In this document: piece by piece, positions 2,646-18,505 of the stretch | Numbering within the stretch: the first letter of the stretch is position 1 | Layout of the letters: the number at the start of each line of letters is the position of its first letter | NCBI GenBank assembly: GCA_050294955.1 | Contig: JBNKOV010000005.1 | Location: 1 to 27,826, forward strand | From: Holophagae bacterium | GTDB lineage: Bacteria; Acidobacteriota; Holophagae; Acanthopleuribacterales; Acanthopleuribacteraceae | Reading direction: 5' to 3' | Length of the DNA: 27,826 nt | Translations under genes and position numbers: made by a program | The notes under the pieces: generated by a model | What the model was told of the DNA's origin: nothing | The model's database searches: none | Seen by the model: the letters and a program-made list of their open reading frames with translations, nothing else

Positions 2646-4274
2646 CTATGCTTTGTATAGATCGTCTATCGAACGGGTTTCCGCCAATAACCGTCTGGCG
2701 GTTTGAAGGCGGGTGTTTATTAGTTCCCGTCCCAACTGTTGGGAACCTGCAAACTCCTTTCGCATTCTTTCGCCCCTGGTGAGGACATTGAGAACAATGA
2801 GAATCCACTCCAGTCCCACCAGATCGCACACGGCTAGCAAGCGGGCTTCCAATCCGGCGTCCTGTTTGCGGTGGTTAATGAATCCTTTTATGGTTTTCAT
2901 CCTCTGGTTTATGGGTTGATTATTGCCAACGTGGCGCAAATAATCACATAATAACTTTACCGGGTCGTCCCAGCCCGCATATTCGAAGTCTAGAATAATC
3001 AGGTTTCCAAGATGATCTCTCAGGCAATTATGGAGACCAAAATCTGAGGGACTGGGGAAGTGAAGTTCCAATGGCAATGGGGTTTCCAGGTCTAAATTCT
3101 TCTTCTGGCAGAAGGACTCGAAGCGACCAAGCGCTTTGTAGTAGGCTGGCTTGAATTGGTTCTTTAGAAATTCTGCCGCTTCATGGTTGTCGCCAGCTTT
3201 AGCGCAGGCTGATTCTAAATCCGCCAGGCGGCGGTCCGTATGTTTACGAAAATCGTTCAAATGCAGTCTGGCATGGGCTGCGCTTGAAATGTCTTCTCGC
3301 GCCAGTTTATGGCCCGTCTCGTCCAATTTAATCAAAAAGGGGAGGAAGTCAGCCCGGGTGGGTGGTTGTCCCTCAATGTATTCCATTAGAAAACCCCTTT
3401 GCAGACGTTTCAGCGGCGCTGGTGAAGATCCAGGTTGATGTCTGTGCAGCATTTTCAGGAATTTCCATTCACAATCAAGCCTTGGTCTATCATCTAAGGC
3501 ATTCTCAAAATACGTTTTAAGCACTCTGCGCGCCCCACTCTGGAATTCCAGGCAAAGGATAAGATTGTTGCCGCCTCGTTTGATGGTGGACCACTTTGTT
3601 AATTTCTCATTGGCGCTCCATAATCCCGGCAGATTAAGCGCAGTAATCTGGTGGTAGTTCGAACATTGGGGAATGTTGGGATGGTTCTCTCGTCCGAACA
3701 AAATGGGCCAGGTTGATTCTGGAAAGTTGGGGTGTTCGGGAACCGACGGCAAATCGTCAATAAAGACATGAGGCTGGAGGCTTTTGATTTTCTGTACCTT
3801 TTCGGTTCTCGTGCTTTCAAAAAAGATCTCACCTCGTCTAAACCCGAGCCCGCCATCCGCCATGCTCATAAAAAATTTGCGTCGGGCCAACGTGTCCAAA
3901 GCGTACTCTCTCAAATTTACGGTGGGATCTATGTTGGAAGTTGTGGTTTTATGACTCACAATGAATATTTCACAGCCCTGCTTCCTTGCCTGGCGAATAA
4001 ATTCTTCAAAACCTTTAAAGAGTCTGGCTTCATGAATGCGCTCCCCGAAAATCAGGGCTTGTATTTTCTGCCAGCGAATCTCGCCTTCCTCTGGGCTGCC
4101 AGCGACCCGTATCAGGCCCTGTTTTATGGACTGTTTTTCCTCTCCCACTGACTCCTGCAACCAGTCTTTTTCTATTGCAAGGCGCCTGGCAAGGGGTAGA
4201 TATTCCAAGATGGTATGATCCAAATCCAGGCCAATTCTAAAGGGCGTTTGAGGGGAAGTTGGGTTATTTATCAT
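2646..4274 (-). CDS. Bifunctional-looking fusion: N-terminal HAD-superfamily phosphatase domain plus C-terminal choline-kinase/aminoglycoside-phosphotransferase (APH/ChoK)-like kinase domain
   Basis: HAD motif I GLDLDHTI at residues 14-21 and motif IV VFIDDLPS. The C-terminal part carries HNCLRDHLGNLIILDFEYAGWDDP, which resembles the ChoK/APH catalytic loop plus the IDFEY motif. ATG at 4272-4274. No strong Shine-Dalgarno. Confidence 0.6.
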   Translation of the reverse strand: MINNPTSPQTPFRIGLDLDHTILEYLPLARRLAIEKDWLQESVGEEKQSIKQGLIRVAGSPEEGEIRWQKIQALIFGERIHEARLFKGFEEFIRQARKQGCEIFIVSHKTTTSNIDPTVNLREYALDTLARRKFFMSMADGGLGFRRGEIFFESTRTEKVQKIKSLQPHVFIDDLPSVPEHPNFPESTWPILFGRENHPNIPQCSNYHQITALNLPGLWSANEKLTKWSTIKRGGNNLILCLEFQSGARRVLKTYFENALDDRPRLDCEWKFLKMLHRHQPGSSPAPLKRLQRGFLMEYIEGQPPTRADFLPFLIKLDETGHKLAREDISSAAHARLHLNDFRKHTDRRLADLESACAKAGDNHEAAEFLKNQFKPAYYKALGRFESFCQKKNLDLETPLPLELHFPSPSDFGLHNCLRDHLGNLIILDFEYAGWDDPVKLLCDYLRHVGNNQPINQRMKTIKGFINHRKQDAGLEARLLAVCDLVGLEWILIVLNVLTRGERMRKEFAGSQQLGRELINTRLQTARRLLAETRSIDDLYKA

Positions 4275-4316: not shown

Positions 4317-5843
4317 TTATTTTAACAGGGTTACCATGTATTTGAACAGGGCTGTGGGTGAGATAGCCTCGCGGTTGCACATGATTCGAACATCAAGCGC
4401 TGCTGCTGCGGCTCCAGCAAAAGCAGCCATTTCCGGGGCCATTCCGCCGCCCAGACAGATACCAGAAATAGACAGGAATGCATCGCCCGCACCAACACGG
4501 TCTACAACTTGGATGGACAAAGCCGGAACCTGGTAGGAAAGGCGTTCCTGCATGCTTCTCATTACAAGGCCTCTTGCTCCCATGGTCGTGGTGATGAATG
4601 AAGCTTGCACCCGTTCGGCGACCATCTGGGCCACCTCTTCTAAAGGGCCGTACCGATTGTGGACAGCCAAGCGAAGCTCTGGCTCGTTTAGGGAGACATA
4701 ATCAACTCGGGGGTAGCGGTTTACGGTGTGATAACCCCTGTTGCCACTGTTGATTTGAGTATTTACAGCCAAAAATTTTGCATGTTTGGAGATGACCTGG
4801 GCCATGGCGTCTGTGATGAAGCCGTTTCCGAAATCGGGAACTATAACAGCATCAAAGCTCCCTAGATTCCTCTCCAACCAATGGCAAATTTCCAATTCCA
4901 GCTCCCTCGCCGGCGGCTTGTCTTCATAGTCATAGACTTCAAAGAGCTTTTGGGCGTCGGGGTCTACGTACCGGCTTTTGAGGATGGTGGGGGCGTCTTC
5001 TCGAAAAAAGAAAATTGGATCGATATTGGGAGCCAGTTTAGATCGAATAAAGGACTCGTAGCTGTTCCTTTCGCCAAGGCCGGTCACCAGGGTTGTTTTT
5101 GAGCAAAACCCTGAGATATGATTGGCTACAGCCAGAGAGCCCCCTGCAAAAAGCTCAGAGCTTTTGTGTTTCACCGCAAAAATATTGCCTTTTCCGGTCT
5201 GGCCCAAATTCTCCGTGTAATTGTACTCATCTACTATGGCGTCTCCCACCACGCAAATATTCAGGTTTTCAAGAGCCTTGATGGCGTCTATAACCTGGTC
5301 GCTGGTGTAGCGTTCTCCGAAATGGCGAAGAAAATCTTTAACGTCTGAAGGAAAGACACTAAAGTGAGCATTCAGCAACTTGCTGGAACTGAAGGTGATC
5401 TCGTCTGTATAAACGGTCTGCCCGCCAATTTCCTCCACAGCATTGCGTTCCTTCAGAATATTCCCGGTAATGTCGTCACCGGGTTTTTGATAATCGCTTC
5501 CTTTGGCGAAGATATGTGGCTTCACTGCCCTGATTGCTGGGATAGCGGTGACTTCTCGTATCAGGCCGACGTAATCAACGCATTCCAGGGCGGCCATATT
5601 TTCACAGCGTAGCATTTCATTGAATACCGGGCGGCCCGGCCCCTTGCTTACAAAGGCATCTGCCGTTAAGGTCACGAAAAGCGCGTCGCCTTCTTCCCTC
5701 GCTCGCTGTAAATGTCGGATATGGCCAACGTGGATGAGGTCGAAGGTTCCGTGACAGAGCACCAGTTTCTTGCCCTGGTTGCGAAGCTCGTCGGCTTTTT
5801 TTTCTAAAAGGTCCAGCTCCAATATCTTGGATTCGCTAGTCAT
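4317..5843 (-). CDS. hldE: HldE-like bifunctional heptose 7-phosphate kinase / heptose 1-phosphate nucleotidyltransferase with reversed domain order (N-terminal cytidylyltransferase-like, C-terminal pfkB kinase)
   Basis: N-terminal LVLCHGTFDLIHVGHIRHL...GDALFVTLTAD...KGSDY aligns with RfaE/HldE domain II (HxGH nucleotidyltransferase). The C-terminus carries the pfkB/ribokinase signature DRVGAGDAF. The ATG overlaps the gmhA stop in an ATGA arrangement. Confidence 0.8.
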   Translation of the reverse strand: MTSESKILELDLLEKKADELRNQGKKLVLCHGTFDLIHVGHIRHLQRAREEGDALFVTLTADAFVSKGPGRPVFNEMLRCENMAALECVDYVGLIREVTAIPAIRAVKPHIFAKGSDYQKPGDDITGNILKERNAVEEIGGQTVYTDEITFSSSKLLNAHFSVFPSDVKDFLRHFGERYTSDQVIDAIKALENLNICVVGDAIVDEYNYTENLGQTGKGNIFAVKHKSSELFAGGSLAVANHISGFCSKTTLVTGLGERNSYESFIRSKLAPNIDPIFFFREDAPTILKSRYVDPDAQKLFEVYDYEDKPPARELELEICHWLERNLGSFDAVIVPDFGNGFITDAMAQVISKHAKFLAVNTQINSGNRGYHTVNRYPRVDYVSLNEPELRLAVHNRYGPLEEVAQMVAERVQASFITTTMGARGLVMRSMQERLSYQVPALSIQVVDRVGAGDAFLSISGICLGGGMAPEMAAFAGAAAAALDVRIMCNREAISPTALFKYMVTLLK

Positions 5844-9454: not shown

Positions 9455-12400
9455 CTATGATGGTTTGTTCTGACGTCGCACCTGGGGCTTGGGCGGGGGT
9501 TTTGGTTTGGGCTCTGGTTTAGCGCTCTCTACTTCTGGCGCGGTCATTTCCTTGAGGCGGCTGATGACCCATTGTTGCGTGCTCAGGGACCGTTCCATTG
9601 CGGTCTGCAGGCCCAAAAGCTTAGTATCCTGTTGGGCCATGCCTTCTTGAAGCGGCTTGAGCCATTGCTCCATCACATGAAACTGTTTTTCCAGCAAAAT
9701 GAGCATGGCCTGACGTTCTTCTCTTCCAGTTGCTTTGGACATTTTGAGGGTGGCCTTCAAGGCGGTGAGCGTTTCCTCATCTATGCCGCCAGATCGGGCT
9801 GGCGGGTTCTCCACGAACTTGCTGAACATTTCCTTCATTGAAGTGGAGTCCAGGTCGCTATCGCTAGCTGACGCCTTTTTAACGGATATCGCTTTAACCA
9901 TTTGCGCTGCGATCTTGCGTAGGGCGAGAAGCGTTGCTTCGTCCAATCCGCCGCTTTTAGGTGTTTCAAGAGCCTGCACGACTCTGTCTGTCATCACTTT
10001 AATCGCGTCGAGCGTGTCCCGATTGTCATTTTCGTTTCTACTTTGTTCCAGAATGTCTTTGATCGTGGAGAGCATGACCTCATCTCCACTCTTCCCGCTC
10101 AGGCGCTCGACGGCATTGGCCAGGGCTCCTTGAATGCCCTCCAACCCCTGGCCGAGTCCCGCTAACTGCAAAATGGCCTGGCCCATGCGATCATCGCCAG
10201 CCGCAGTGAGCGACAGGTTTCTGGCGAACGTGGATTTAATGTCCTCCCATCGCTTAATCTCCTCTTCGGTCATTTTCCCAGTAAGTTCCTTGAACTTGAG
10301 CAGGTTGGCCTCAGCGCCCGACGTTAGCGTCTGGGACTCGTTTTCATAATGGGAGTGAATGAGACTTTCCAGCTCCTCATCGTTCATGATGGGAAGCACC
10401 TTTTCTGCAATCTTATTCATATTGCGATAGGAACCTTGAAGCTTAAAGGATGGTTCGGTGCGGTAGGCGTCCGCCTGGGCCGCCGATTCGATATACTGGA
10501 GGTTTACTGCCAGAATAACATCCCTCACCCGAAGCAATTTGCTCAAAACATTCACGAAATCGTTGATTTCTTCGCCTGAGTAATTTCCCTCCAGTTCTAC
10601 ACCCTCACGAGAGCCCTTTTCTGCAATTTTTATCAGGCTATATACGTCTTTCTGACTGCGAGACATCAACTTGTTCAGGGTGGCGTTGGAGGTGAGACAG
10701 TTTTCTATATAGCTCATGCGGAACACGTCTTCCGTATCGCCGATGATATCGCCAAGGTTATAGGTGTCTGCACGGTTGGCCAACATGTCCGGGATCTGAA
10801 ATTTCTCGCCGCTTTCCGTGTAAGGGTTGCCCGCCATCACCACGGCCACTTTTTTCCCCCGTAGATCGTAGGTTCTGGAGACCCCTTTGTAGACCCCTTC
10901 AATTTTCCGTTGACCGTCGCAAAGTGAAATGAATTTTTGGAGGAGTTCCGGGTTGCAATGCTGAATGTCGTCGAGATAAATCATGATATTGTCGCCCATC
11001 TCGAAAGCCAGATTCAACTTTTTCAGCTCGTCCCGAGCGGAAGCATTGGGCGCCTCTGCTGGATCCAGGGAGGTTACCTGGTGACCAATGGCCGGGCCGT
11101 TGATTTTCATGAAAATGACGCCCAAACGATCCGCAACATATTCCATTAGAGTGGTTTTACCATAACCGGGCGGGGAAATGAGCAATAGCATGCCCATGAG
11201 GTCGGTGCGCTTCTTTTCTCCAACAACTCCCACTTGCTTGGCCAGGTTATCCCCGATTAGAGACAGGTAAACCTTGTCTATAAGTTGGTTCCGGACAAAC
11301 GAACTGAGAATGCGAGGTTTGAATTCGTCCAACTTTAAATCTTTGCGGAAACCTTCGGCCAGTTGCTTTTTCAGGGCCAGGTATTCGATGAAGCGTGGAA
11401 CCTGCTCTGCCTCATAGGCTTCCAGTTTTTGGATGAAGTGATTGTAATGCAGGTGGTAAACGCCTTTTTTAATGAGGTTGTGGTCGCCGCGCAAGCCCTC
11501 AATGGTCTGACTCACATGGGTGTGAATAACCCGAGCCCGGTCGAAATGACCACAATAGTAAAGGGCGGCCGCCTCGTCGATATAATCCTCATTCTCCGGG
11601 GATTGATTTTTGACATAGGCTCCGATCCAGTCTCGTACAAGGAAAAATCGGTTGATTGGGTCGTCCTGCAAAGCGTCCGTGGTTTCGTCGAAATGCTTTC
11701 GGGACTTGTTTTCCCTGAGGTACTTATCGAACCCGTCGTAAACGTCTGAGGCATTTTGGCTAATGCAAAACCCCTCGCCGCTGGTGAGTTCCCTGAATAA
11801 GTAGACGGCGGCATCCTTGATCCAAATCTCTGAAAAAAGACCGGTTTCTTTTAAGAATCGACCGATTAACTGCTCCAATTCATTCACATAACTTTTGGAG
11901 CGTTCGGGATCAGGGAATAGCTTTTCTATGGCGCCTACGCCCCTGCACGTGCGTTCCAGGACGGTTTTTCGGTTCTGCGGGCACCAGGTCAACCAAAATA
12001 CAGCGGCGCATGCGCGGGCTTCGCTGGGATAGATGAGCAGGCCGATCTGACTATGCAACTTGAGGAGGGCTACCAGCATCAGGGCGGCGTCCTGGTCATG
12101 AACGCCCTTGGCGTAACCCTCTTGGAATCTTGGACCCATGAATTTTTGGATCTCTTTTTGCATTACTTCTCGGGTTTGATTGGAAGCTGCCCTAATCTGG
12201 CCATCTCTTTGCAAATGAAGCAGATACTGATAGGCCAGGTACTCGCCGCGATAGACCTCCCTGCTCTCCGATAGGTATTCACGGTCCCAGAGATCTTGAG
12301 TTTCCAAAAATTGAGGATCTGCTATTTTTTCGAAGAAATTGGTGCCGGTGAGGTGATAGTATTGACCGTCTTCCCGTGCGACAATGGTGAGGGCCAGATC

Positions 12401-12925
12401 CTGGGTGTTAACGGAGAATCGGTGTTCTCCCAGCCGAATGACATTGTCTCCGCCTTCGAAAAGATCCTGGCGATCCTTGAGTTGGCGCACGGCGTCTTCC
12501 CTGATGGTCTTTAACTGGCTCTGCAGGGAGTCGGCCTTCACCGAGTCGTCAAGGTCCTTTAATTGGGATACAATGTCTCGCACTTTTTCGATCATGAGAT
12601 CGCCAGCAAAATAGCCGTTGATCTCGTTAATCGTTTTGAAATTGCCAATCCTGTTTTTGATGCCCTTCAGGATGCGATCTGCCGCACTCATCAGTGCGCC
12701 TGTCCGCTTGTTGCGGGCCTCCACCAGGTTTAGCTTTTTGGCTTCAAAGGCGTTGTAGATCTCATCCCGCTTCTCGGCAAGCTGAACCGCAAACTCGTCA
12801 AAATCTGCGAATCTTCCTTCCAGCTCTTCTACCTGCACCATAAGCCGAGTGAGATAATTATCGCATTTTTCCGGTTCATCGCAGACATCCAGGTAGTTGA
12901 TCATGGCCTGGCTGAGCAGCTTCAT
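9455..12925 (-). CDS. Large (1156 aa) protein with a central MoxR/McrB-class AAA+ ATPase core and long non-ATPase N- and C-terminal regions. Last gene of the flotillin-linked operon.
   Basis: Walker A LLISPPGYGKTTL at about aa 583-592. Walker B and sensor MIYLDDIQHCNPELLQKFISL. VVMAGNPYTESGEKFQIPDMLANRAD is equivalent to the MoxR segment ATQNP..E..LPEA.LDRF. The C-terminal tail is Pro/Lys-rich: KPEPKPKPPPKPQVRRQNKPS. The ATG at 12923-12925 overlaps the TGA of the upstream gene (ATGA). Confidence 0.65.
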   Translation of the reverse strand: MKLLSQAMINYLDVCDEPEKCDNYLTRLMVQVEELEGRFADFDEFAVQLAEKRDEIYNAFEAKKLNLVEARNKRTGALMSAADRILKGIKNRIGNFKTINEINGYFAGDLMIEKVRDIVSQLKDLDDSVKADSLQSQLKTIREDAVRQLKDRQDLFEGGDNVIRLGEHRFSVNTQDLALTIVAREDGQYYHLTGTNFFEKIADPQFLETQDLWDREYLSESREVYRGEYLAYQYLLHLQRDGQIRAASNQTREVMQKEIQKFMGPRFQEGYAKGVHDQDAALMLVALLKLHSQIGLLIYPSEARACAAVFWLTWCPQNRKTVLERTCRGVGAIEKLFPDPERSKSYVNELEQLIGRFLKETGLFSEIWIKDAAVYLFRELTSGEGFCISQNASDVYDGFDKYLRENKSRKHFDETTDALQDDPINRFFLVRDWIGAYVKNQSPENEDYIDEAAALYYCGHFDRARVIHTHVSQTIEGLRGDHNLIKKGVYHLHYNHFIQKLEAYEAEQVPRFIEYLALKKQLAEGFRKDLKLDEFKPRILSSFVRNQLIDKVYLSLIGDNLAKQVGVVGEKKRTDLMGMLLLISPPGYGKTTLMEYVADRLGVIFMKINGPAIGHQVTSLDPAEAPNASARDELKKLNLAFEMGDNIMIYLDDIQHCNPELLQKFISLCDGQRKIEGVYKGVSRTYDLRGKKVAVVMAGNPYTESGEKFQIPDMLANRADTYNLGDIIGDTEDVFRMSYIENCLTSNATLNKLMSRSQKDVYSLIKIAEKGSREGVELEGNYSGEEINDFVNVLSKLLRVRDVILAVNLQYIESAAQADAYRTEPSFKLQGSYRNMNKIAEKVLPIMNDEELESLIHSHYENESQTLTSGAEANLLKFKELTGKMTEEEIKRWEDIKSTFARNLSLTAAGDDRMGQAILQLAGLGQGLEGIQGALANAVERLSGKSGDEVMLSTIKDILEQSRNENDNRDTLDAIKVMTDRVVQALETPKSGGLDEATLLALRKIAAQMVKAISVKKASASDSDLDSTSMKEMFSKFVENPPARSGGIDEETLTALKATLKMSKATGREERQAMLILLEKQFHVMEQWLKPLQEGMAQQDTKLLGLQTAMERSLSTQQWVISRLKEMTAPEVESAKPEPKPKPPPKPQVRRQNKPS

Positions 12926-14973
12926 TTGAGCATTGTATTCGGCAGCCCCTTCGGATTTGCCATTTCCCTGCTGCGGTTCTTGAGCTCTGCCCGTATTTGA
13001 TTCAACCGAGTGTAAATATCTGATATAGCGTCAATTATTTCGGTAGTTTTTGTCGGGTCGTCTATCTTCAGATTGCTGACGATTTCAATCAAAAGCTCCA
13101 GCTCAGATCCGTTCTTGGCAAGGGCTTCTTCGATCTCTTTAGCTTCGCTCACCTTCTCGAAGGACTCAACAGCTCCAGCCTGATCGGTGATCCGGTCCTC
13201 ATAGGGTTGAAGCGCGTTAGGACTTAATAGGAAATTAACGCAGTCAGACGACAGTTTGTCGCGTTGCTCCTTTACCAGATCATTCAGGTTCTCAATGAGT
13301 TGTGTGTCGGCATAGCGCAATTCGCCTGCAGAAATGATTTCGCCGCTAATCACACGAAGCTCTGATAGTTTGTGGACAAACTCTTCTATGGACTCGAACC
13401 TGGAGCGTTTGATATGGTTTAGCAGTTCGTGAGTATTGTCAGCTACGGTCTGGGTCTGCTGTTTGGTTGCTCGCTTTACCTTTTGAACCTTGTCAAACTC
13501 ATCAACGGCGGAACCGGCAGCCTCGCGAATCCCAGCCAGCGCCTCAGCCAAATTAAAGGCCTCTTCGTTTGCGAGCCAGAACCAGGCTTCGCTGACGTCC
13601 CCGGCTTTTTTCACGATGTCGATATACAGAGATGCGTAGATTTCTTCCCGTTCAATGAGATTCAATATCTCATTGCACTCTGCCATAGCCCTCACAATAT
13701 CTTTGTTCCCAATTTTATACAACGGGTTGTCTGATGAGGCGCCAACCTCGAAACCGTCACTCACATAGGGGGTTTGCCAGAATTGCACTGTGTGGTGTTT
13801 CTGGGGTTCTTCCTCGGCCCGGAAGTACACCAGCTCGCCACTATTAAAGATAGAGTAACCCTCGCAAATTATAGGGGTTGCTACCTCTTGACTGATGAGG
13901 TTGTAGGAGAGCAGCACATAGTGGCCCTGTTCTCGCTGGTAAAAGCAGTATAGATAGTCTTCCCCATTTGGAGAGGCCACCCTACAATCGAACATCATGT
14001 CGGAGAAATCGGTGTCAAAAATTTTGTGGCGGCCTGTGGCCAGATAATAACCATTGGGAAAAATAATCCCGTGATCGTCAGGCAGGAAGACACAGGTGCT
14101 TTCAATTGCGTCTATTCGAGTTACAGTCCCCAGTTTTTCGTTAAATACAAAATAACGATACTGCTTTTCCTGGTAGGGCTTGATCTTTAACAGAATGAGG
14201 TGGCCCACAATCGTGTAATAGAATTCACCGTCGTCCAGATTCTGATCGGGGTCGTCCACAGGTTCGTTGTAAATGCCAACCCCGTCTCGGGTGTTGTCAT
14301 CTATTTTAATAGTGAGATCGCCGCCAACTGTTTCTACAAAAACCCTGTCCTCTATAGAGATATGGGGATGTTCCCCAGAGCGGTGATAGTCGCGGTGGGT
14401 GCGCTTCCAAACGAAATCGTGTTGGGTTGGATACTTGAATTCCGCATCGCTTCGGTTGTCGATGTAAGTTATTGAATCGTCTTTGATGAGCCACTTGAAG
14501 GTCTTGATGTCTGTGGCGGATTTTCCCACACGGAAGACCATAAACAGATGTGGCCCGATTTGGGTGAACTTTGCGAAGATCGTGTTCTTGTAATAGCGGT
14601 AGAGATTTTCAAAGTCTTCGTGGAACTTGGGGTTGTTCAACAGTTCAAGGTCTCTTTTTTTGAACTGGTGATCCACAAAATCATAGATTGAAAAAACATC
14701 GTGCAGCTTGATCTCGGATCGCAAGCCAACCTGAACGTTGTAGCCGAATATGAAACGAGTCCCCAATGGGAAAAGGTCTCTGGGCGTACAGTTGTTGTCG
14801 GTGTTAATCCGATCACTGCCAAGAAGTTTGGTCTCAACCGACCCGAAGACCTCTTTTCGAGCCTCATTCAAGGAGTTCAAGCGGTCCTTAAGCTCCTTGC
14901 CCAAGGTGTTCAATCTTCCGCGAATTATCTCGTAAGCGCCCCCTTCAAGGGTAACTTCTTCTGTACCTTCCAT
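12922..14973 (-). CDS. 683-aa conserved hypothetical protein translationally coupled to the AAA+ protein. It has a beta-rich central region, an alpha-helical C-terminal third and no recognisable catalytic motif.
   Basis: Long intact ORF. Its stop overlaps the downstream start. It lies 83 nt downstream of flotillin in the same orientation. I found no Walker, vWA-MIDAS or nuclease motifs by eye. Confidence 0.6.
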   Translation of the reverse strand: MEGTEEVTLEGGAYEIIRGRLNTLGKELKDRLNSLNEARKEVFGSVETKLLGSDRINTDNNCTPRDLFPLGTRFIFGYNVQVGLRSEIKLHDVFSIYDFVDHQFKKRDLELLNNPKFHEDFENLYRYYKNTIFAKFTQIGPHLFMVFRVGKSATDIKTFKWLIKDDSITYIDNRSDAEFKYPTQHDFVWKRTHRDYHRSGEHPHISIEDRVFVETVGGDLTIKIDDNTRDGVGIYNEPVDDPDQNLDDGEFYYTIVGHLILLKIKPYQEKQYRYFVFNEKLGTVTRIDAIESTCVFLPDDHGIIFPNGYYLATGRHKIFDTDFSDMMFDCRVASPNGEDYLYCFYQREQGHYVLLSYNLISQEVATPIICEGYSIFNSGELVYFRAEEEPQKHHTVQFWQTPYVSDGFEVGASSDNPLYKIGNKDIVRAMAECNEILNLIEREEIYASLYIDIVKKAGDVSEAWFWLANEEAFNLAEALAGIREAAGSAVDEFDKVQKVKRATKQQTQTVADNTHELLNHIKRSRFESIEEFVHKLSELRVISGEIISAGELRYADTQLIENLNDLVKEQRDKLSSDCVNFLLSPNALQPYEDRITDQAGAVESFEKVSEAKEIEEALAKNGSELELLIEIVSNLKIDDPTKTTEIIDAISDIYTRLNQIRAELKNRSREMANPKGLPNTMLK

Positions 14974-15015
14974 GCGCTGCCTGTCCCCAAATAATATTTA
15001 AATCCATTGCCAGAG

Positions 15016-15054
15016 CTCCAAAGAGGCGACCGCCAGAACGGCCGCCCTTTGGAG
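15016..15054 (-). promoter_or_regulatory. Strong intra-operon RNA hairpin 2 nt after the flotillin stop codon (8-bp and 8-bp stems separated by a bulge, 6-nt loop, one G-U wobble on the minus-strand transcript)
   Basis: The minus-strand RNA reads CUCCAAAG-GGCGGCCG-UUCUGG-CGGUCGCC-U-CUUUGGAG. The outer 8-bp pairing is perfect. There is no clean U-tract after it, so it is more likely an attenuator, processing or stability element than a full terminator. Confidence 0.5.
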
Positions 15055-15056
15055 AT

Positions 15057-17120
15057 TTATTTAAAGAGCAGGGAAGCGGACTGGCCGCCCAGGCCCAATT
15101 TTTCGAGGATGCCCATGCCGTGTTTCAGCAATCCTGTGGTCTCCTCATTATCGGATAGGGAGATCATCCGGCTGACCAGCGCTGAAAGTGTGAGGTTCTT
15201 CACGTCTTCAGAGGTCATGCCGAATTGGCCTACGAATTTCTTTAACTGGCTTTTGAAGTATTCCGGATCTCCGTTAAAGAAGGTTTCCTTCACATCGCTG
15301 AGCACTTCACTGTTGCTAACGAGGCGATCCACTGCTTTGCCTTGAGTTATGGTGGATGTAATCTTGTCAAAGAAGGCGCCGTCTCCGCCTACGATATCGA
15401 TCTTGGCCGTTCTCAATGCTTCCTGAATGATGGCTGCCTGGGAGGCGGCGATATCTTTCTGTGCGAGGATTTTGGCAAGTTCAATTTCCTTGGCCTGGTT
15501 CAAGCGCAATTTAAATTCTTCGTGCTCGCGTCCAACGCCGTCCAACTTCTTCATGGCGTCGGCCTTCTTCTCAATGCCAAGCGCCTCTGCGTGACTCTTG
15601 CGCTGGAGGACATTGGCTTCTGCTTCGCCTTGTTTCTCAATGGCCACAGCATGGGCCTCCAGGCCTTTGGCTTCCGCTAGCGCCTTCTTCTCATGGATGG
15701 AGGCCTCAACATTGCCCATTTTCTCCGACGCGTCCGCTTTGGCGGTCATCACCTCGGCTTCTGCAAGACCAATAGCGGCTTCTTCGGCAGCCTTGGCCTC
15801 CGCCATCAGCTTTCGAGCTTCTGCTTTTAAGTCGGAAGCTTTGCGGTCCGCCTCTGCTTCCACTACGTTTTGCTCAGCTTTCAATTCTGCGGCCCGCTTG
15901 CCGGCTTCTGCGGCCTTTACCTGCCGCAGAGCTTCCTCTTCGGCCTGGGATGATGCCGCCGTTATGGCTACGGCCTTGTTTCGATCAGCTTCGGCAGTGG
16001 CCTGGGTGTCTTTGATTTTCTCCTGCTCTTCTACAACGGACCGTTCCACCGTGACTCTTTCCCGGATGATTTCTTGGATGTTCTTGCGCTCTTCTTCCAG
16101 AGCGCGTTCTTTTTCAATACGAGCCAGCTCCACAACGCGCTCTCGCTCGTTGACTTCCAGAAGGCGGTCTTTTTCAACCCGTTCCTTCTCAACAGCGCCG
16201 GTTTTTTCTTTGCTCATCTGGGCCACAAGCACCTGACGGGCCTTGTTCTCTTCGGCAATTTGAACTTCTTCTTCGGTGGCGATGCGCGCCTGTTCGGCCT
16301 TCAGGCGTTCTTCCTGTTGAACCTTCATGGTTTCAGCAGTTTCACGAGCCTTGGTCGATGCGATCTCCCTTCTCTGACGTTCCTCGGCCTCAGCCTGTTG
16401 ACGCTCCAGTTCCAGGATCTGTTCTTTTGCTTCAACATCTTGACGTTTTAGGGATTTATCTCGTTCACGCTCGATCTTGTTGGCTTGAACCCGTTGGGTG
16501 GCGGTAAGATCGGTGATCTTTTTTATGCCTTCTGCATCCAAGATATTAAATGGATCCAGCTCGGTCATGGGTGTTTGTTCCAGATAATCAATGGCGGTGT
16601 CTTCAAGGATATAGCCGTTCAGGTCGGTGCCAATGATCTGTTGCACTTCGTCTTTGAATTCCCTACGAGCATTGTACAGATCGACAAAATCGAATTTCTT
16701 GCCCACTGTTTTCAGGGCTTCGGAAAATTTAGCGTCGAACAATTCCACCAGTGTGGTCTGATTGGAGGCGCGATCACAGCCAATGAGTTGGGCTACCTTT
16801 AAAACGTCTTCAATGGTTTTGTTCACTTTCACAAAGAAGACGACTTTGATGTCCGCCCGCATGTTGTCTCTGCAGATAAGACCTTCAGAGCCCTGTCGAT
16901 GAATTTCAATGCGTTTCACCGAAATGTCCATGGTTTCGGCTCGGTGAATGACGGGAATCACCACCAGTCCGCTGAAGTTCACCTTGGCGCCGCCGAATCC
17001 GTTTCGAACAATAGCTTTGCCCTGGTCCACCTTACGGTAGGAGTTGACCAGGATAAACCCCAGTCCAAACAGAAATATCAGGCCAATGACCAGGCCAATT
17101 ATTCCAACTTGTTCTAACAT
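15057..17120 (-). CDS. Flotillin / YqiK-like SPFH (band 7) domain membrane scaffold protein with a long Ala/Glu-rich coiled-coil
   Basis: N-terminal transmembrane segment (IIGLVIGLIFLFGLGFILV) followed by an SPFH core. The region EAEA...AEAKAAEEAA is an extended, strongly charged coiled-coil typical of flotillins. ATG at 17118-17120 with a GGGAGAG Shine-Dalgarno. It lies 3 nt after the NfeD-like stop. Confidence 0.85.
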   Translation of the reverse strand: MLEQVGIIGLVIGLIFLFGLGFILVNSYRKVDQGKAIVRNGFGGAKVNFSGLVVIPVIHRAETMDISVKRIEIHRQGSEGLICRDNMRADIKVVFFVKVNKTIEDVLKVAQLIGCDRASNQTTLVELFDAKFSEALKTVGKKFDFVDLYNARREFKDEVQQIIGTDLNGYILEDTAIDYLEQTPMTELDPFNILDAEGIKKITDLTATQRVQANKIERERDKSLKRQDVEAKEQILELERQQAEAEERQRREIASTKARETAETMKVQQEERLKAEQARIATEEEVQIAEENKARQVLVAQMSKEKTGAVEKERVEKDRLLEVNERERVVELARIEKERALEEERKNIQEIIRERVTVERSVVEEQEKIKDTQATAEADRNKAVAITAASSQAEEEALRQVKAAEAGKRAAELKAEQNVVEAEADRKASDLKAEARKLMAEAKAAEEAAIGLAEAEVMTAKADASEKMGNVEASIHEKKALAEAKGLEAHAVAIEKQGEAEANVLQRKSHAEALGIEKKADAMKKLDGVGREHEEFKLRLNQAKEIELAKILAQKDIAASQAAIIQEALRTAKIDIVGGDGAFFDKITSTITQGKAVDRLVSNSEVLSDVKETFFNGDPEYFKSQLKKFVGQFGMTSEDVKNLTLSALVSRMISLSDNEETTGLLKHGMGILEKLGLGGQSASLLFK

Positions 17121-17123
17121 TGC

Positions 17124-17735
17124 TTAACTCTCCCAATCCTGAAATGCTTCCACAATATAAAGGTCTTTTTCGTTATCTTTCTCTATAACAAGTGCTTGTG
17201 CCCCCTGGTTTAGGCTATCCCCAGCACGGGTTCGAACGAGCAGCGTTAAGGGCGCTCCTCCGGTCTTCACTTCGGCCTGAGCGATACGGTCTTCCGTGGC
17301 GTCTCCTAGAAGGATGCATAAACTGCCGATGGCCGCAATCTGATCCTCCTCGTAATGGAGGGCCCGAAACAACGAGGAGAAGGGTTTCACCGCAATTTTG
17401 GTTATAAAAATGCTGATGACAATGTTGGGGACCGCCAGGCCCGAGGCTATTAGCAGAGACGAGGTGTTGCTCAGATAATAGTTGCTGAGAATGGCGATGG
17501 CCCACATGGACAGACTCATAAGACTGACAATCAACATGAAGGGCACTTCTCCGGCGCTGAGAAACACCAGAAATCCGTGAAAAGCTCCGGGGTCACCGTC
17601 CATATCGAAATCAAAATCGAAGGTGGACAAGTCCAATGCGCCAATGATGACGCATAGCCAATAGATGAGCACGATGATGAGCAACACGGTGAATGGCAAA
17701 TTTATAGCGCTAAACGCGGCATCCAGTAATAACAT
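17124..17735 (-). CDS. YqiJ/NfeD-like membrane protein (N-terminal transmembrane helices, C-terminal OB-fold-like beta domain), the usual flotillin partner
   Basis: 203 aa. The hydrophobic N-terminus (LPFTVLLIIVLIYWLCVIIGAL) is followed by an acidic DFDFDMDGDP segment. The C-terminal G..G.A.V....G.....VEA pattern resembles the NfeD beta-barrel. Gene order matches E. coli yqiJ-yqiK. GAGGTGA Shine-Dalgarno. Confidence 0.6.
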   Translation of the reverse strand: MLLLDAAFSAINLPFTVLLIIVLIYWLCVIIGALDLSTFDFDFDMDGDPGAFHGFLVFLSAGEVPFMLIVSLMSLSMWAIAILSNYYLSNTSSLLIASGLAVPNIVISIFITKIAVKPFSSLFRALHYEEDQIAAIGSLCILLGDATEDRIAQAEVKTGGAPLTLLVRTRAGDSLNQGAQALVIEKDNEKDLYIVEAFQDWES

Positions 17736-17832: not shown

Positions 17833-17862
17833 AGCGTGATCTACTATACCAGAAACCCGCAG
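17833..17862 (-). promoter_or_regulatory. Candidate sigma70 promoter for the nfeD-flotillin operon: -35 CTGACA, 18-nt spacer, -10 TATAGT on the minus strand
   Basis: Reverse complement of 17857-17862 is CTGACA and of 17833-17838 is TATAGT. It lies about 90 nt upstream of the NfeD-like ATG. Pattern only. Confidence 0.3.
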
Positions 17863-18022
17863 AACCTGTCAGCAGAATAGAAGAGTTCTTGGTTCGGGCC
17901 TTGAGTCCTTAAACCATGCGCCAAATGCATGGGCTATATGTTGGCCCTTGTTTGGGAGGCTCTGTCCAAGGATCTTGTCAGTTTCAGCCGCAGCAGTAGC
18001 AATGATCGGGTAGTCAACATCG

Positions 18023-18493
18023 TCAATCCACCTCGCGGGCTTCTACTTCGATGATTCTGTCGTCTGAAACAGGATCGTGGGGCGGTTGCGGACCTCGGCT
18101 TTGGTGGGTGAAGGCGGTTTGCACCTTGACGTTTTTTTTGAACCAGGCAATGACAACTCTGGCTGCGCTTTTCCTGAGGGGCGGGATGAGGAGAAGGAAG
18201 GCGATGGTGTCTGTGATGAAGCCCGGCGTAAGGAGCAGGGTTCCGATGACCACAAGGATCAACCCTGATACGATTTCCAGGGCGGGAACCTGGCCGCGAG
18301 CCATGGTGTTTTGAATGTCCCGCCAGGCCTTCAAGCCCTGGGCTCTCACCATGCCGCCGCCCAAAATGCCTGTGGCCACGCATAGCAGTAGGGTTGTGAA
18401 TACGGTAATTTCCTGAGCTGCAAGAATGAGCAGGTACAATTCTCCAAAACTCAAAATAACCACTAACAGAAAAAATCGGGCAATCAATCCCAT
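18023..18493 (-). CDS. fxsA: FxsA family inner-membrane protein (F-plasmid-mediated exclusion of phage T7 suppressor)
   Basis: LLLTPGFITDTIAFLLLIPPLRK matches the conserved FxsA core (LLLPGFFTD...LLLPPVRK). 156 aa with three hydrophobic segments. It starts 12 nt after the rel stop. Confidence 0.75.
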   Translation of the reverse strand: MGLIARFFLLVVILSFGELYLLILAAQEITVFTTLLLCVATGILGGGMVRAQGLKAWRDIQNTMARGQVPALEIVSGLILVVIGTLLLTPGFITDTIAFLLLIPPLRKSAARVVIAWFKKNVKVQTAFTHQSRGPQPPHDPVSDDRIIEVEAREVD

Positions 18494-18505
18494 GATCCAA
18501 CTCGC

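Follow-up and report, generated by a model that had tools for sequence, protein, structure and literature searches.

What does a flotillin operon do when it runs on into a giant ATPase gene? The question is raised by a locus in a 27,826-nucleotide (nt) stretch of DNA from a Holophagae bacterium (contig JBNKOV010000005.1 of assembly GCA_050294955.1), which we refer to as the window; coordinates are window positions, and all genes of the module lie on the minus strand. The original prediction described an NfeD-like gene and a flotillin gene, 3 nt apart, followed, after an 83-nt spacer containing a hairpin, by two giant genes for products of 683 and 1156 amino acids (aa) overlapping by 4 nt (ATGA). 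All four open reading frames (ORFs) and their junctions were recovered at the places assigned to them, and the two giant genes turned out to be a single one, broken by a frameshift. We read the locus as a three-gene operon encoding a YqiJ-type protein, a YqiK-type flotillin and one frameshifted ATPase of ~1840 aa, and we hold, with slightly more confidence than doubt, that this operon serves in ATP-driven remodelling of flotillin/PspA-type sub-membrane scaffolds, the remodelling being the part that we infer. The features of the module are as follows.

17124 to 17735, minus strand: YqiJ-type NfeD-like inner-membrane protein of 203 aa (ORF and profile comparison).
15057 to 17120, minus strand: YqiK-type flotillin (SPFH2) of 687 aa (ORF and profile comparison).
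15017 to 15053, minus strand: stem-loop with a 16-bp stem and a 4-nt loop (RNA folding).
9455 to 14973, minus strand: one frameshifted DUF3686-DUF7902-AAA+ gene for ~1839 aa, made up of the ORFs 14973 to 12922 (683 aa) and 12925 to 9455 (1156 aa).
13774 to 14829, minus strand: β-rich DUF3686 core, residues ~49 to 400, a divergent β-propeller.
12964 to 13218, minus strand: DUF7902 helical region, residues 586 to 670, which closes a helical bundle of residues 417 to 672.
12955 to 12962, minus strand: frameshift site (blastn gap analysis and three-frame translation).
10586 to 11248, minus strand: single AAA+ module, residues ~560 to 780 of the 1156-aa ORF (Pfam, alignment, AlphaFold2 model and Foldseek).

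Searches with the concatenated 683- and 1156-aa sequences revealed homologues that aligned across the junction in a single high-scoring segment pair, with ~50 to 57% identity. Most homologues of the 683-aa product exceed 683 aa, and nearly all matches to the 1156-aa half are proteins of 1600 to 1890 aa that carry PF12458, PF25472 and PF00004. Three-frame translation revealed that the downstream frame is open for 35 codons 5′ of its ATG and that the family consensus ...KSEGAAEYNAQMKLL... is readable there; this upstream extension of the 1156-aa frame, ...GKSEGAAEYNAQMKLLSQAMINYLD, agrees with the family consensus ...SVEGAAEFNSQLKLL.QAV.NYLD, and the final 11 residues of the 683-aa ORF depart from the family consensus. 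At 90% identity, the closest match falls in a cluster of four proteins, namely the two products of the window, protein P0121 from contig L082, and protein P0243, an intact 1840-aa product of contig L083 that is 98% identical to the window protein. Comparison of L083 with the window (97.0% nucleotide identity over 7207 nt) revealed one gap only, a base absent from the window at ~12959, and the extra base is present in L082 too (97.6% nucleotide identity). The frameshift site reads ATGGCAAATCC in the window, ATGGCCAAATCC in L083 and ATGGCAAAATCA in L082, and the codons at ~12958/12959 are GCC-AAA-TCC and GCA-AAA-TCA in the relatives versus GCAAATCC in the window. The missing base occupies a wobble position, which differs (C or A) between the two relatives. 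We analysed 80 loci out of at least 587 relatives found in one-genome-per-species contigs; the DUF3686 and AAA parts shared one ORF in 79 of these 80 species-level loci, the complete ORF coding for 1600 to 1900 aa. Because of the single-segment alignments, the open upstream frame, the extra base in the relatives and the fused loci, we conclude on sequence evidence that the 683- and 1156-aa ORFs are one gene, split by a 1-nt deletion at ~12958, and that the prediction of two giant genes has to be given up. The deletion may be a true mutation, resulting in a pseudogene or a protein made in two pieces, or an assembly error; the sequence alone is compatible with either. For annotation, split gene calls like that of the window are to be treated as breaks in a single gene.

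The predicted extension of a flotillin/NfeD pair by a large AAA+ gene was confirmed, and it recurs in several phyla. In 71 of the 80 loci, the ATPase gene directly follows a flotillin orthologue (phmmer E values of 1e-190 to 1e-257) encoded on the same strand, and 7 of the 9 other loci have <2.7 kb of upstream sequence. A YqiJ-like gene was present 5′ of the flotillin gene in 61 loci. Conversely, the ATPase gene was immediately downstream of three of four flotillin-subfamily genes sampled on long contigs outside the ATPase match lists. Homologues of the large gene recurrently sit beside flotillin and NfeD-like genes, and the association of the flotillin with the ATPase is far beyond chance. 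The 80 loci are distributed among Planctomycetota, Bacteroidota, Verrucomicrobiota, Acidobacteriota, Desulfobacterota, Hydrogenedentota, Sumerlaeia and others. Clustering of all neighbouring ORFs of the 80 loci revealed no other widely conserved neighbour. The comparison of flotillin and ATPase identities across loci (Spearman coefficient of -0.12) was uninformative, the loci being about equally distant from the window. Judged from gene content and order, the flotillin-NfeD-ATPase module is inherited as a unit across phyla, including the first four of these and Calditrichota.

Locus L013 (9539 to 9961) and five similar Hymenobacter-type loci contain, between the flotillin and ATPase genes, a gene of ~140 aa encoding a DUF559 protein (Vsr-like endonuclease, E value of 2e-32), which accounts for the flotillin/ATPase gaps of 500 to 700 nt in these loci. 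In appearance, it is a small insertion of a selfish or mobile kind.

The flotillin and NfeD assignments of the original prediction were upheld when family profiles were compared with YqiK and YqiJ of E. coli, although Pfam failed to detect the former and barely registered the latter. The window flotillin had no match in Pfam (even at E values ≤1), NCBIfam, PADLOC or a sequence search of the PDB, and Band_7 was detected in 5 of 33 flotillin orthologues (best E value of 2.5e-12). Alignment of the family profile to YqiK with hhalign gave a probability of 100% (E value of 1.2e-39) over 402 columns, the SPFH region among them, with 32% identity, and a weak match was obtained to the helical region of QmcA. 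The protein is composed of an N-terminal transmembrane (TM) helix (hydrophobic residues ~5 to 27), a divergent SPFH domain, an E/A/K-rich coiled coil at residues ~210 to 560, which aligns with the coiled coil of YqiK, and a conserved C-terminal region. Its relatives are named "flotillin family protein" or "YqiK" by their sources. At the profile level, the 687-aa protein is a divergent, long YqiK-type flotillin. The 203-aa protein matched the Pfam family YqiJ_N with an E value of 1e-3 (19.7 bits, under the 23-bit cut-off) and did not match NfeD; among 32 orthologues, YqiJ_N was found in 22 and NfeD in 6. Comparison of this family with E. coli YqiJ by hhalign gave a probability of 97% (E value of 1.2e-10) over 187 columns that span both parts of the protein, namely an N-terminal part made of TM segments and an acidic D-x-D-x-D loop, and a soluble domain at the C terminus, putatively of the OB fold (NfeD). 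At the same profile level, the 203-aa protein is probably of the YqiJ type and NfeD-like.

The 683-aa product, described originally as a partner lacking any recognisable domain, matched Pfam DUF3686 over its full length (E value of 2.4e-189) and then DUF7902 (E value of 3.5e-28). The DUF3686 core comprises ~27 strands (residues ~49 to 400) and follows a long N-terminal helix at residues 9 to 43. The complete protein consists, in order, of an N-terminal coiled-coil helix, the divergent β-propeller (DUF3686), the helical bundle (DUF7902), more helical domains, a MoxR-like AAA+ module and a helical, basic C terminus. The AlphaFold2 model of the 1156-aa half had a mean predicted local distance difference test score of 81.4 and was confident for residues 1 to 940, followed by a low-confidence helical, basic tail. 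An exhaustive search for the DUF3686 half retrieved 935 clusters at 50% identity, whose complete members are typically of 1600 to 1930 aa with an N-terminal DUF3686; the nearest named relatives are from Acidobacteriota (Sulfidibacter and Acanthopleuribacter, 55 to 61% identity). The AAA+ core is nearly invariant in 95 sequences, with SPPGYGKTT as Walker A, YLDDIQH as Walker B, AGNP as sensor-1 and a conserved R718. The NPxxExG...P...L.xR signature conserved after sensor-1 resembles that of the MoxR family.

The class of the ATPase had been predicted as MoxR/McrB type. The 1156-aa ORF matched Pfam AAA (E value of 6.6e-7, 30.3 bits) and AAA_5 (22.9 bits for a cut-off of 22 bits). With the modelled AAA+ core as the query, Foldseek gave NorQ and CbbQ, of the MoxR family, as the best matches (E values of ~1e-5, TM-scores of ~0.5); ClpA, RuvB, Lon and MCM followed within one order of magnitude, and dynein was also close. 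The MoxR label is plausible, not exclusive. Nothing pointed to McrB, for which we found no related match in Pfam, NCBIfam or PADLOC, no representative in the top 50 fold matches and no McrC-like neighbour. Neither the operon of the window nor the conserved neighbours in the 80 loci included a VWA gene; a VIT-VWA gene located ~6 kb upstream in locus L084 is not conserved. No TM segment or signal peptide was visible in the ATPase sequence and the flotillin has one N-terminal TM helix, and therefore the bulk domains of both proteins are expected to be cytoplasmic.

The succession of a β-propeller and helical repeats in the N-terminal half gave Foldseek matches across both parts of the clathrin heavy chain (terminal domain and linker), of IFT-A subunits and of Elp1. 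A coat-like arrangement of this half, in a family with many members from Planctomycetota and Verrucomicrobiota, is a lead only, as the TM-scores were low.

The operon type is already known in print. Ravi et al. (2024, mSystems 9:e00847-23, PMC11237479) described by comparative genomics an operon encoding CesT/Tir-PspA, a band-7/flotillin protein, a YqiJ/YuaF protein with three TM segments and an AAA+ ATPase with a coiled coil and a β-propeller. According to the same authors, abbreviated operons lacking the CesT/Tir-PspA dyad are more widespread and might work with a PspA encoded elsewhere, some proteobacterial versions include a phospholipase D gene, and the proposed role is chaperone-like, in assembling a sub-membrane complex and in its dynamics. 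The three protein architectures of the window are the same, and we found the full form among related loci: CesT_Tir_1 (E value of 2.9e-58) and PspA (E value of 6e-41) are encoded directly upstream, on the same strand, in 15 to 16 of the 80 loci, nearly all from Bacteroidota, with a divergently oriented helix-turn-helix regulator alongside. The window differs by the absence of CesT and PspA, neither of which was found in its 27.8 kb, by the absence of a phospholipase D gene and by the frameshift in the ATPase gene. By architecture and neighbourhood, the module is an abbreviated form of the operon of Ravi et al., of which the window adds another, apparently damaged copy. The novelty claimed for the locus is lost to this computational description. 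The accompanying statement that no function has been characterised for the combination stands for the literature searched, which gave no papers on DUF3686, PF12458, DUF7902 or PF25472. An ATPase partner is not mentioned by Hinderhofer (2009) or in a 2026 paper on Pseudomonas SPFH proteins, and the module is not covered by the eLife 2020 paper on conflict systems.

The order of the NfeD-like and flotillin genes is that of yqiJ-yqiK in E. coli and yuaF-floT in B. subtilis, with homology detectable at the profile level (YqiK and YqiJ). These classical operons end at the flotillin gene, whereas that of the window continues into a ~5.5-kb AAA+ gene; the flotillin subfamily is also longer (~690 to 720 aa versus 553 aa) and has diverged to the point of escaping Pfam Band_7 in most members. 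SPFH cages are known to pair with AAA+ machines, HflK/C with FtsH and prohibitin with the m-AAA protease, and the AAA+ ATPase Vps4 remodels ESCRT-III polymers. The coupling of an SPFH scaffold to a membrane AAA+ machine in the former two systems provides a working analogy for the module. Unlike FtsH, the window ATPase has no protease domain or TM anchor and is MoxR-like rather than of the FtsH clade; its scaffold is of the flotillin type and cytoplasmic, in contrast to the periplasmic HflK/C-type scaffold. MoxR chaperones (NorQ/NorD, CbbQ/CbbO and RavA/ViaA) are the nearest in fold to the ATPase core, with a marginal Pfam AAA_5 match. They are proteins of ~300 aa with a VWA partner, whereas the window protein reaches ~1840 aa, with a propeller and helices in its N-terminal half and a DD in Walker B. 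The parallel with ESCRT-III and Vps4, drawn by Ravi et al. (PMC11237479), is a conceptual one and lies in the pairing of a polymer bound to the membrane, which is PspA in the extended operons, with a dedicated AAA+ ATPase. Unlike Vps4, the window ATPase has no detected MIT domain; Vps4 ranked 50th in the Foldseek search, and PspA is absent from the window.

According to the remodelling that we favour, the flotillin and its NfeD partner would build an oligomeric scaffold or cage at the inner membrane, on its cytoplasmic side. The ATPase would oligomerise via its AAA+ module and dock via the β-propeller and helical N-terminal part. With ATP, it would drive the assembly, disassembly or remodelling of the flotillin scaffold, and also of PspA/ESCRT-III-like polymers in loci that have them. 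Such an activity may serve membrane maintenance under envelope stress, in the manner of Vps4 acting on ESCRT-III. Several points weigh against such a mechanism. Most loci, including the window, have no PspA gene nearby, and the link to PspA is indirect. A Cloacimonetes metagenome-assembled genome (locus L086, 7235 to 11042) contains the NfeD-like gene and the flotillin gene with no ATPase gene, the next gene encoding a DUF547 protein instead, and from this locus it appears that the flotillin scaffold can function without the ATPase. The Walker B motif ends in DD (D652/D653, window 10960 to 10970), invariant in the 95 sequences, versus the canonical DE, and this makes the rate of ATP hydrolysis uncertain. 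A canonical aromatic pore loop was not evident in the ATPase, the VWA partner usual for MoxR-family ATPases is absent from the module, and the literature searched gave no experimental study of any member of the module.

A stronger version of the same proposal is that flotillin, NfeD and the DUF3686/AAA+ protein together form a dedicated ATP-driven machine for membrane remodelling or repair, in which a flotillin cage is the platform, the giant ATPase polymerises or depolymerises flotillin/PspA scaffolds and the N-terminal half recalls coat-type proteins; as a whole, this version is doubtful. If it is true, bacterial flotillins would thereby gain a first defined enzymatic partner and a mechanism; their function is a long-standing question, and deleting them has weak, pleiotropic effects. 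This flotillin subfamily, nearly always linked to a single very large and highly conserved AAA+ ATPase, offers a concrete, testable handle on flotillin function. Cultured carriers of the ATPase exist (e.g., Hymenobacter, Flexithrix dorotheae, Symmachiella dynata and Sulfidibacter corallicola), and the module may be used to study ATP-dependent dynamics of scaffolds at the inner membrane of bacteria.

The main alternative to scaffold remodelling, modelled on HflK/C-FtsH or on MoxR-type maturation by NorQ and CbbQ, is that the flotillin cage corrals membrane or membrane-proximal clients and that the ATPase extracts them, unfolds them or inserts their cofactors, without acting on the scaffold itself. 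The AAA+ fold is indeed nearest to that of these two maturation chaperones, HflK/C-FtsH is an established precedent for an SPFH protein working with an AAA+ enzyme, and β-propellers are typical platforms for binding substrates or adaptors. In addition, the FloA-NfeD pair of Staphylococcus aureus is reported to stabilise unfolded proteins (PMC11222466). Against this, the operon encodes no protease, VWA or other domain that would specify a client, no conserved candidate client gene is located nearby, and a canonical pore loop is not evident. The CesT-PspA extension of the operon favours polymer scaffolds over enzymes as the target. Client handling is thus possible, although we consider it rather unlikely.

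A second alternative concerns the gene itself, since the split may be genuine, with a 683-aa propeller and helical subunit and a 1156-aa ATPase subunit produced by termination and reinitiation at the ATGA. The end of the frameshifted ORF coincides exactly with an in-frame ATG (ATGA) of the downstream frame, the break falls in a helical inter-domain region, and, with no second indel in 7.2 kb, the assembly is not one generally rich in indels. Locus L084 was also called as a pair, of 664 and 1095 aa, with a 14-nt overlap. However, no Shine-Dalgarno-like sequence is located 5 to 10 nt from the restart ATG, the missing base falls at the C/A wobble position, where a consensus error in a mixed population would be plausible, and both the fused loci and the extra base in the 97%-identical relatives speak for an intact ancestral frame. 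Other split assemblies are broken at residues ~375 to 382 (with NN), ~641 to 646 and ~927 to 942 (with an insertion of ~1.9 kb). The breaks differ in position, resembling random damage or error rather than the outcome of selection; there is therefore no conserved split, and a conserved two-subunit arrangement was rejected. In L082 (GCA_041156665.1), the ATPase gene is broken at another place than that of the window, by a 7-nt insertion including NN (1400 to 1412) that results in an artificial split into 407 and 1436 aa; this is clearly an assembly or scaffolding artefact. In L033 (2920 to 4884), an insertion element may account for the ~1.9 kb that interrupts the gene between residues ~927 and ~942. 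We regard a genuine two-subunit enzyme as improbable, and the single gene remains our reading.

The anti-phage role put forward as plausible for the locus would have the membrane scaffold sense infection and the ATPase trigger membrane disruption or another output, possibly as abortive infection. The patchy spread of the module, with ~50 to 57% identity across phyla, suggests horizontal transfer, and its flanking genes are not conserved. The DUF559 endonuclease gene found inside the operon in a few Hymenobacter-type loci, and the phospholipase D gene of some proteobacterial versions (Ravi et al., PMC11237479), also count in favour of such a system. However, comparison of the split and intact proteins with PADLOC-DB v2 gave only P-loop or coiled-coil noise, namely IetA (E value of ~1e-3, over 30 P-loop residues) and Cyclase (E values of 5e-3 to 8.5e-3), and the flotillin, NfeD and DUF3686 parts matched nothing. 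A scan of 2.9 million viral contigs revealed no copy, and the window and other loci lie amid housekeeping genes, not in mobile elements or defence islands. An effector domain is absent from the core module, its very high sequence conservation is atypical of fast-evolving defence genes, and the literature search gave no link between flotillin and phage defence for the module. A defence function is very unlikely. Finally, the idea that the protein is a DNA-repair ATPase whose adjacency to flotillin is unrelated to its function derives from database names (Pfam PF12458, "ATPase involved in DNA repair"; NCBI, "DNA repair ATPase"; relatives are called "MoxR-like ATPase" by JGI) and a weak, P-loop-level similarity to RuvB, and is scarcely credible, since the RuvB matches cover ~50 residues around Walker A (NCBIfam scores of 22 to 25 bits versus cut-offs of 282 to 299), no DNA-binding, repair or nuclease domain was detected, no paper was found on DUF3686, PF12458 or DUF7902, and linkage to membrane scaffold genes, sometimes including PspA, is tight and near-invariant, so that the repair name is an annotation without visible support.

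Expression of the ATPase may be adjusted relative to that of the scaffold. Within the 83-nt spacer that separates the ATPase gene from the flotillin gene, the stem-loop begins 4 nt past the stop codon of the latter, and the 111-nt hairpin region has a folding energy of -38.5 kcal/mol (z score of -2.56 versus dinucleotide shuffles). The hairpin has no clean U-tract, was not called by the terminator scan and is kept in both 97%-identical relatives; we consider it a candidate partial terminator or mRNA-stabilising element. Among 37 distant loci with spacers of 40 to 400 nt, a strong hairpin after the flotillin gene was found in 23 (z < -2 for the best 50-nt hairpin, with mononucleotide shuffles as the only control). 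The sequences are unrelated, and many of the 23 are perfect stems of 12 to 17 bp in different phyla (e.g., L003, L022, L027, L032, L049, L053 and L070). This recurrence suggests a conserved regulatory architecture, acting by attenuation or by transcript stabilisation. In the operon that we propose, the hairpin would probably hold expression of the ATPase below that of the scaffold. Upstream, the intergenic region between fxsA and the NfeD-like gene contains a weak promoter-like site, and the numbers of sites in the promoter and terminator scan of the window did not exceed shuffled expectation. The upstream features are as follows.

17843 to 17872, minus strand: weak promoter-like site CTGACA-18-TATAGT with TG (consensus scan).
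18023 to 18493, minus strand: fxsA, 156 aa (Pfam FxsA, E value of 1.1e-27).

The fxsA gene had been proposed as a functional clue. The gene is present; none of the 80 related loci has it, and its adjacency in the window is therefore incidental. A longer, 188-aa ORF with a TTG start (17934 to 18500, minus strand) was rejected as fxsA, since it had no match and is an Arg/Pro/His-rich, low-complexity spurious frame lying over the true gene; the region is a trap for gene calling by longest ORF.

The surroundings of the module are a housekeeping neighbourhood. On the minus strand, the module is preceded, in order, by tgt, yajC, secD, secF, rel and fxsA and followed by genes for a sodium-dependent transporter, a galE-like product, an SIS protein, an hldE-like product, a 542-aa protein, a two-subunit transketolase and an rmlD-like product. 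Rfam and tRNA scans of the window gave no matches. The hldE-like gene (4317 to 5843, minus strand), located ~3.6 kb downstream of the module, is bifunctional, combining cytidylyltransferase and PfkB kinase parts, and a similar gene is present in L081 (10321 to 11754). In E. coli K-12, hldE is likewise the near neighbour of yqiJK. The shared proximity is probably a coincidence, since hldE is not a conserved neighbour of the module in the 80 loci. The 542-aa ORF (2646 to 4274, minus strand), between the hldE-like and transketolase genes, had no Pfam match and has unnamed identical or near-identical copies in the protein collection. Transketolase is encoded by two minus-strand ORFs (889 to 1860 and 1811 to 2629) that overlap by 50 nt, one carrying Transketolase_N and the other Transket_pyr plus Transketolase_C; two-subunit transketolases are known.

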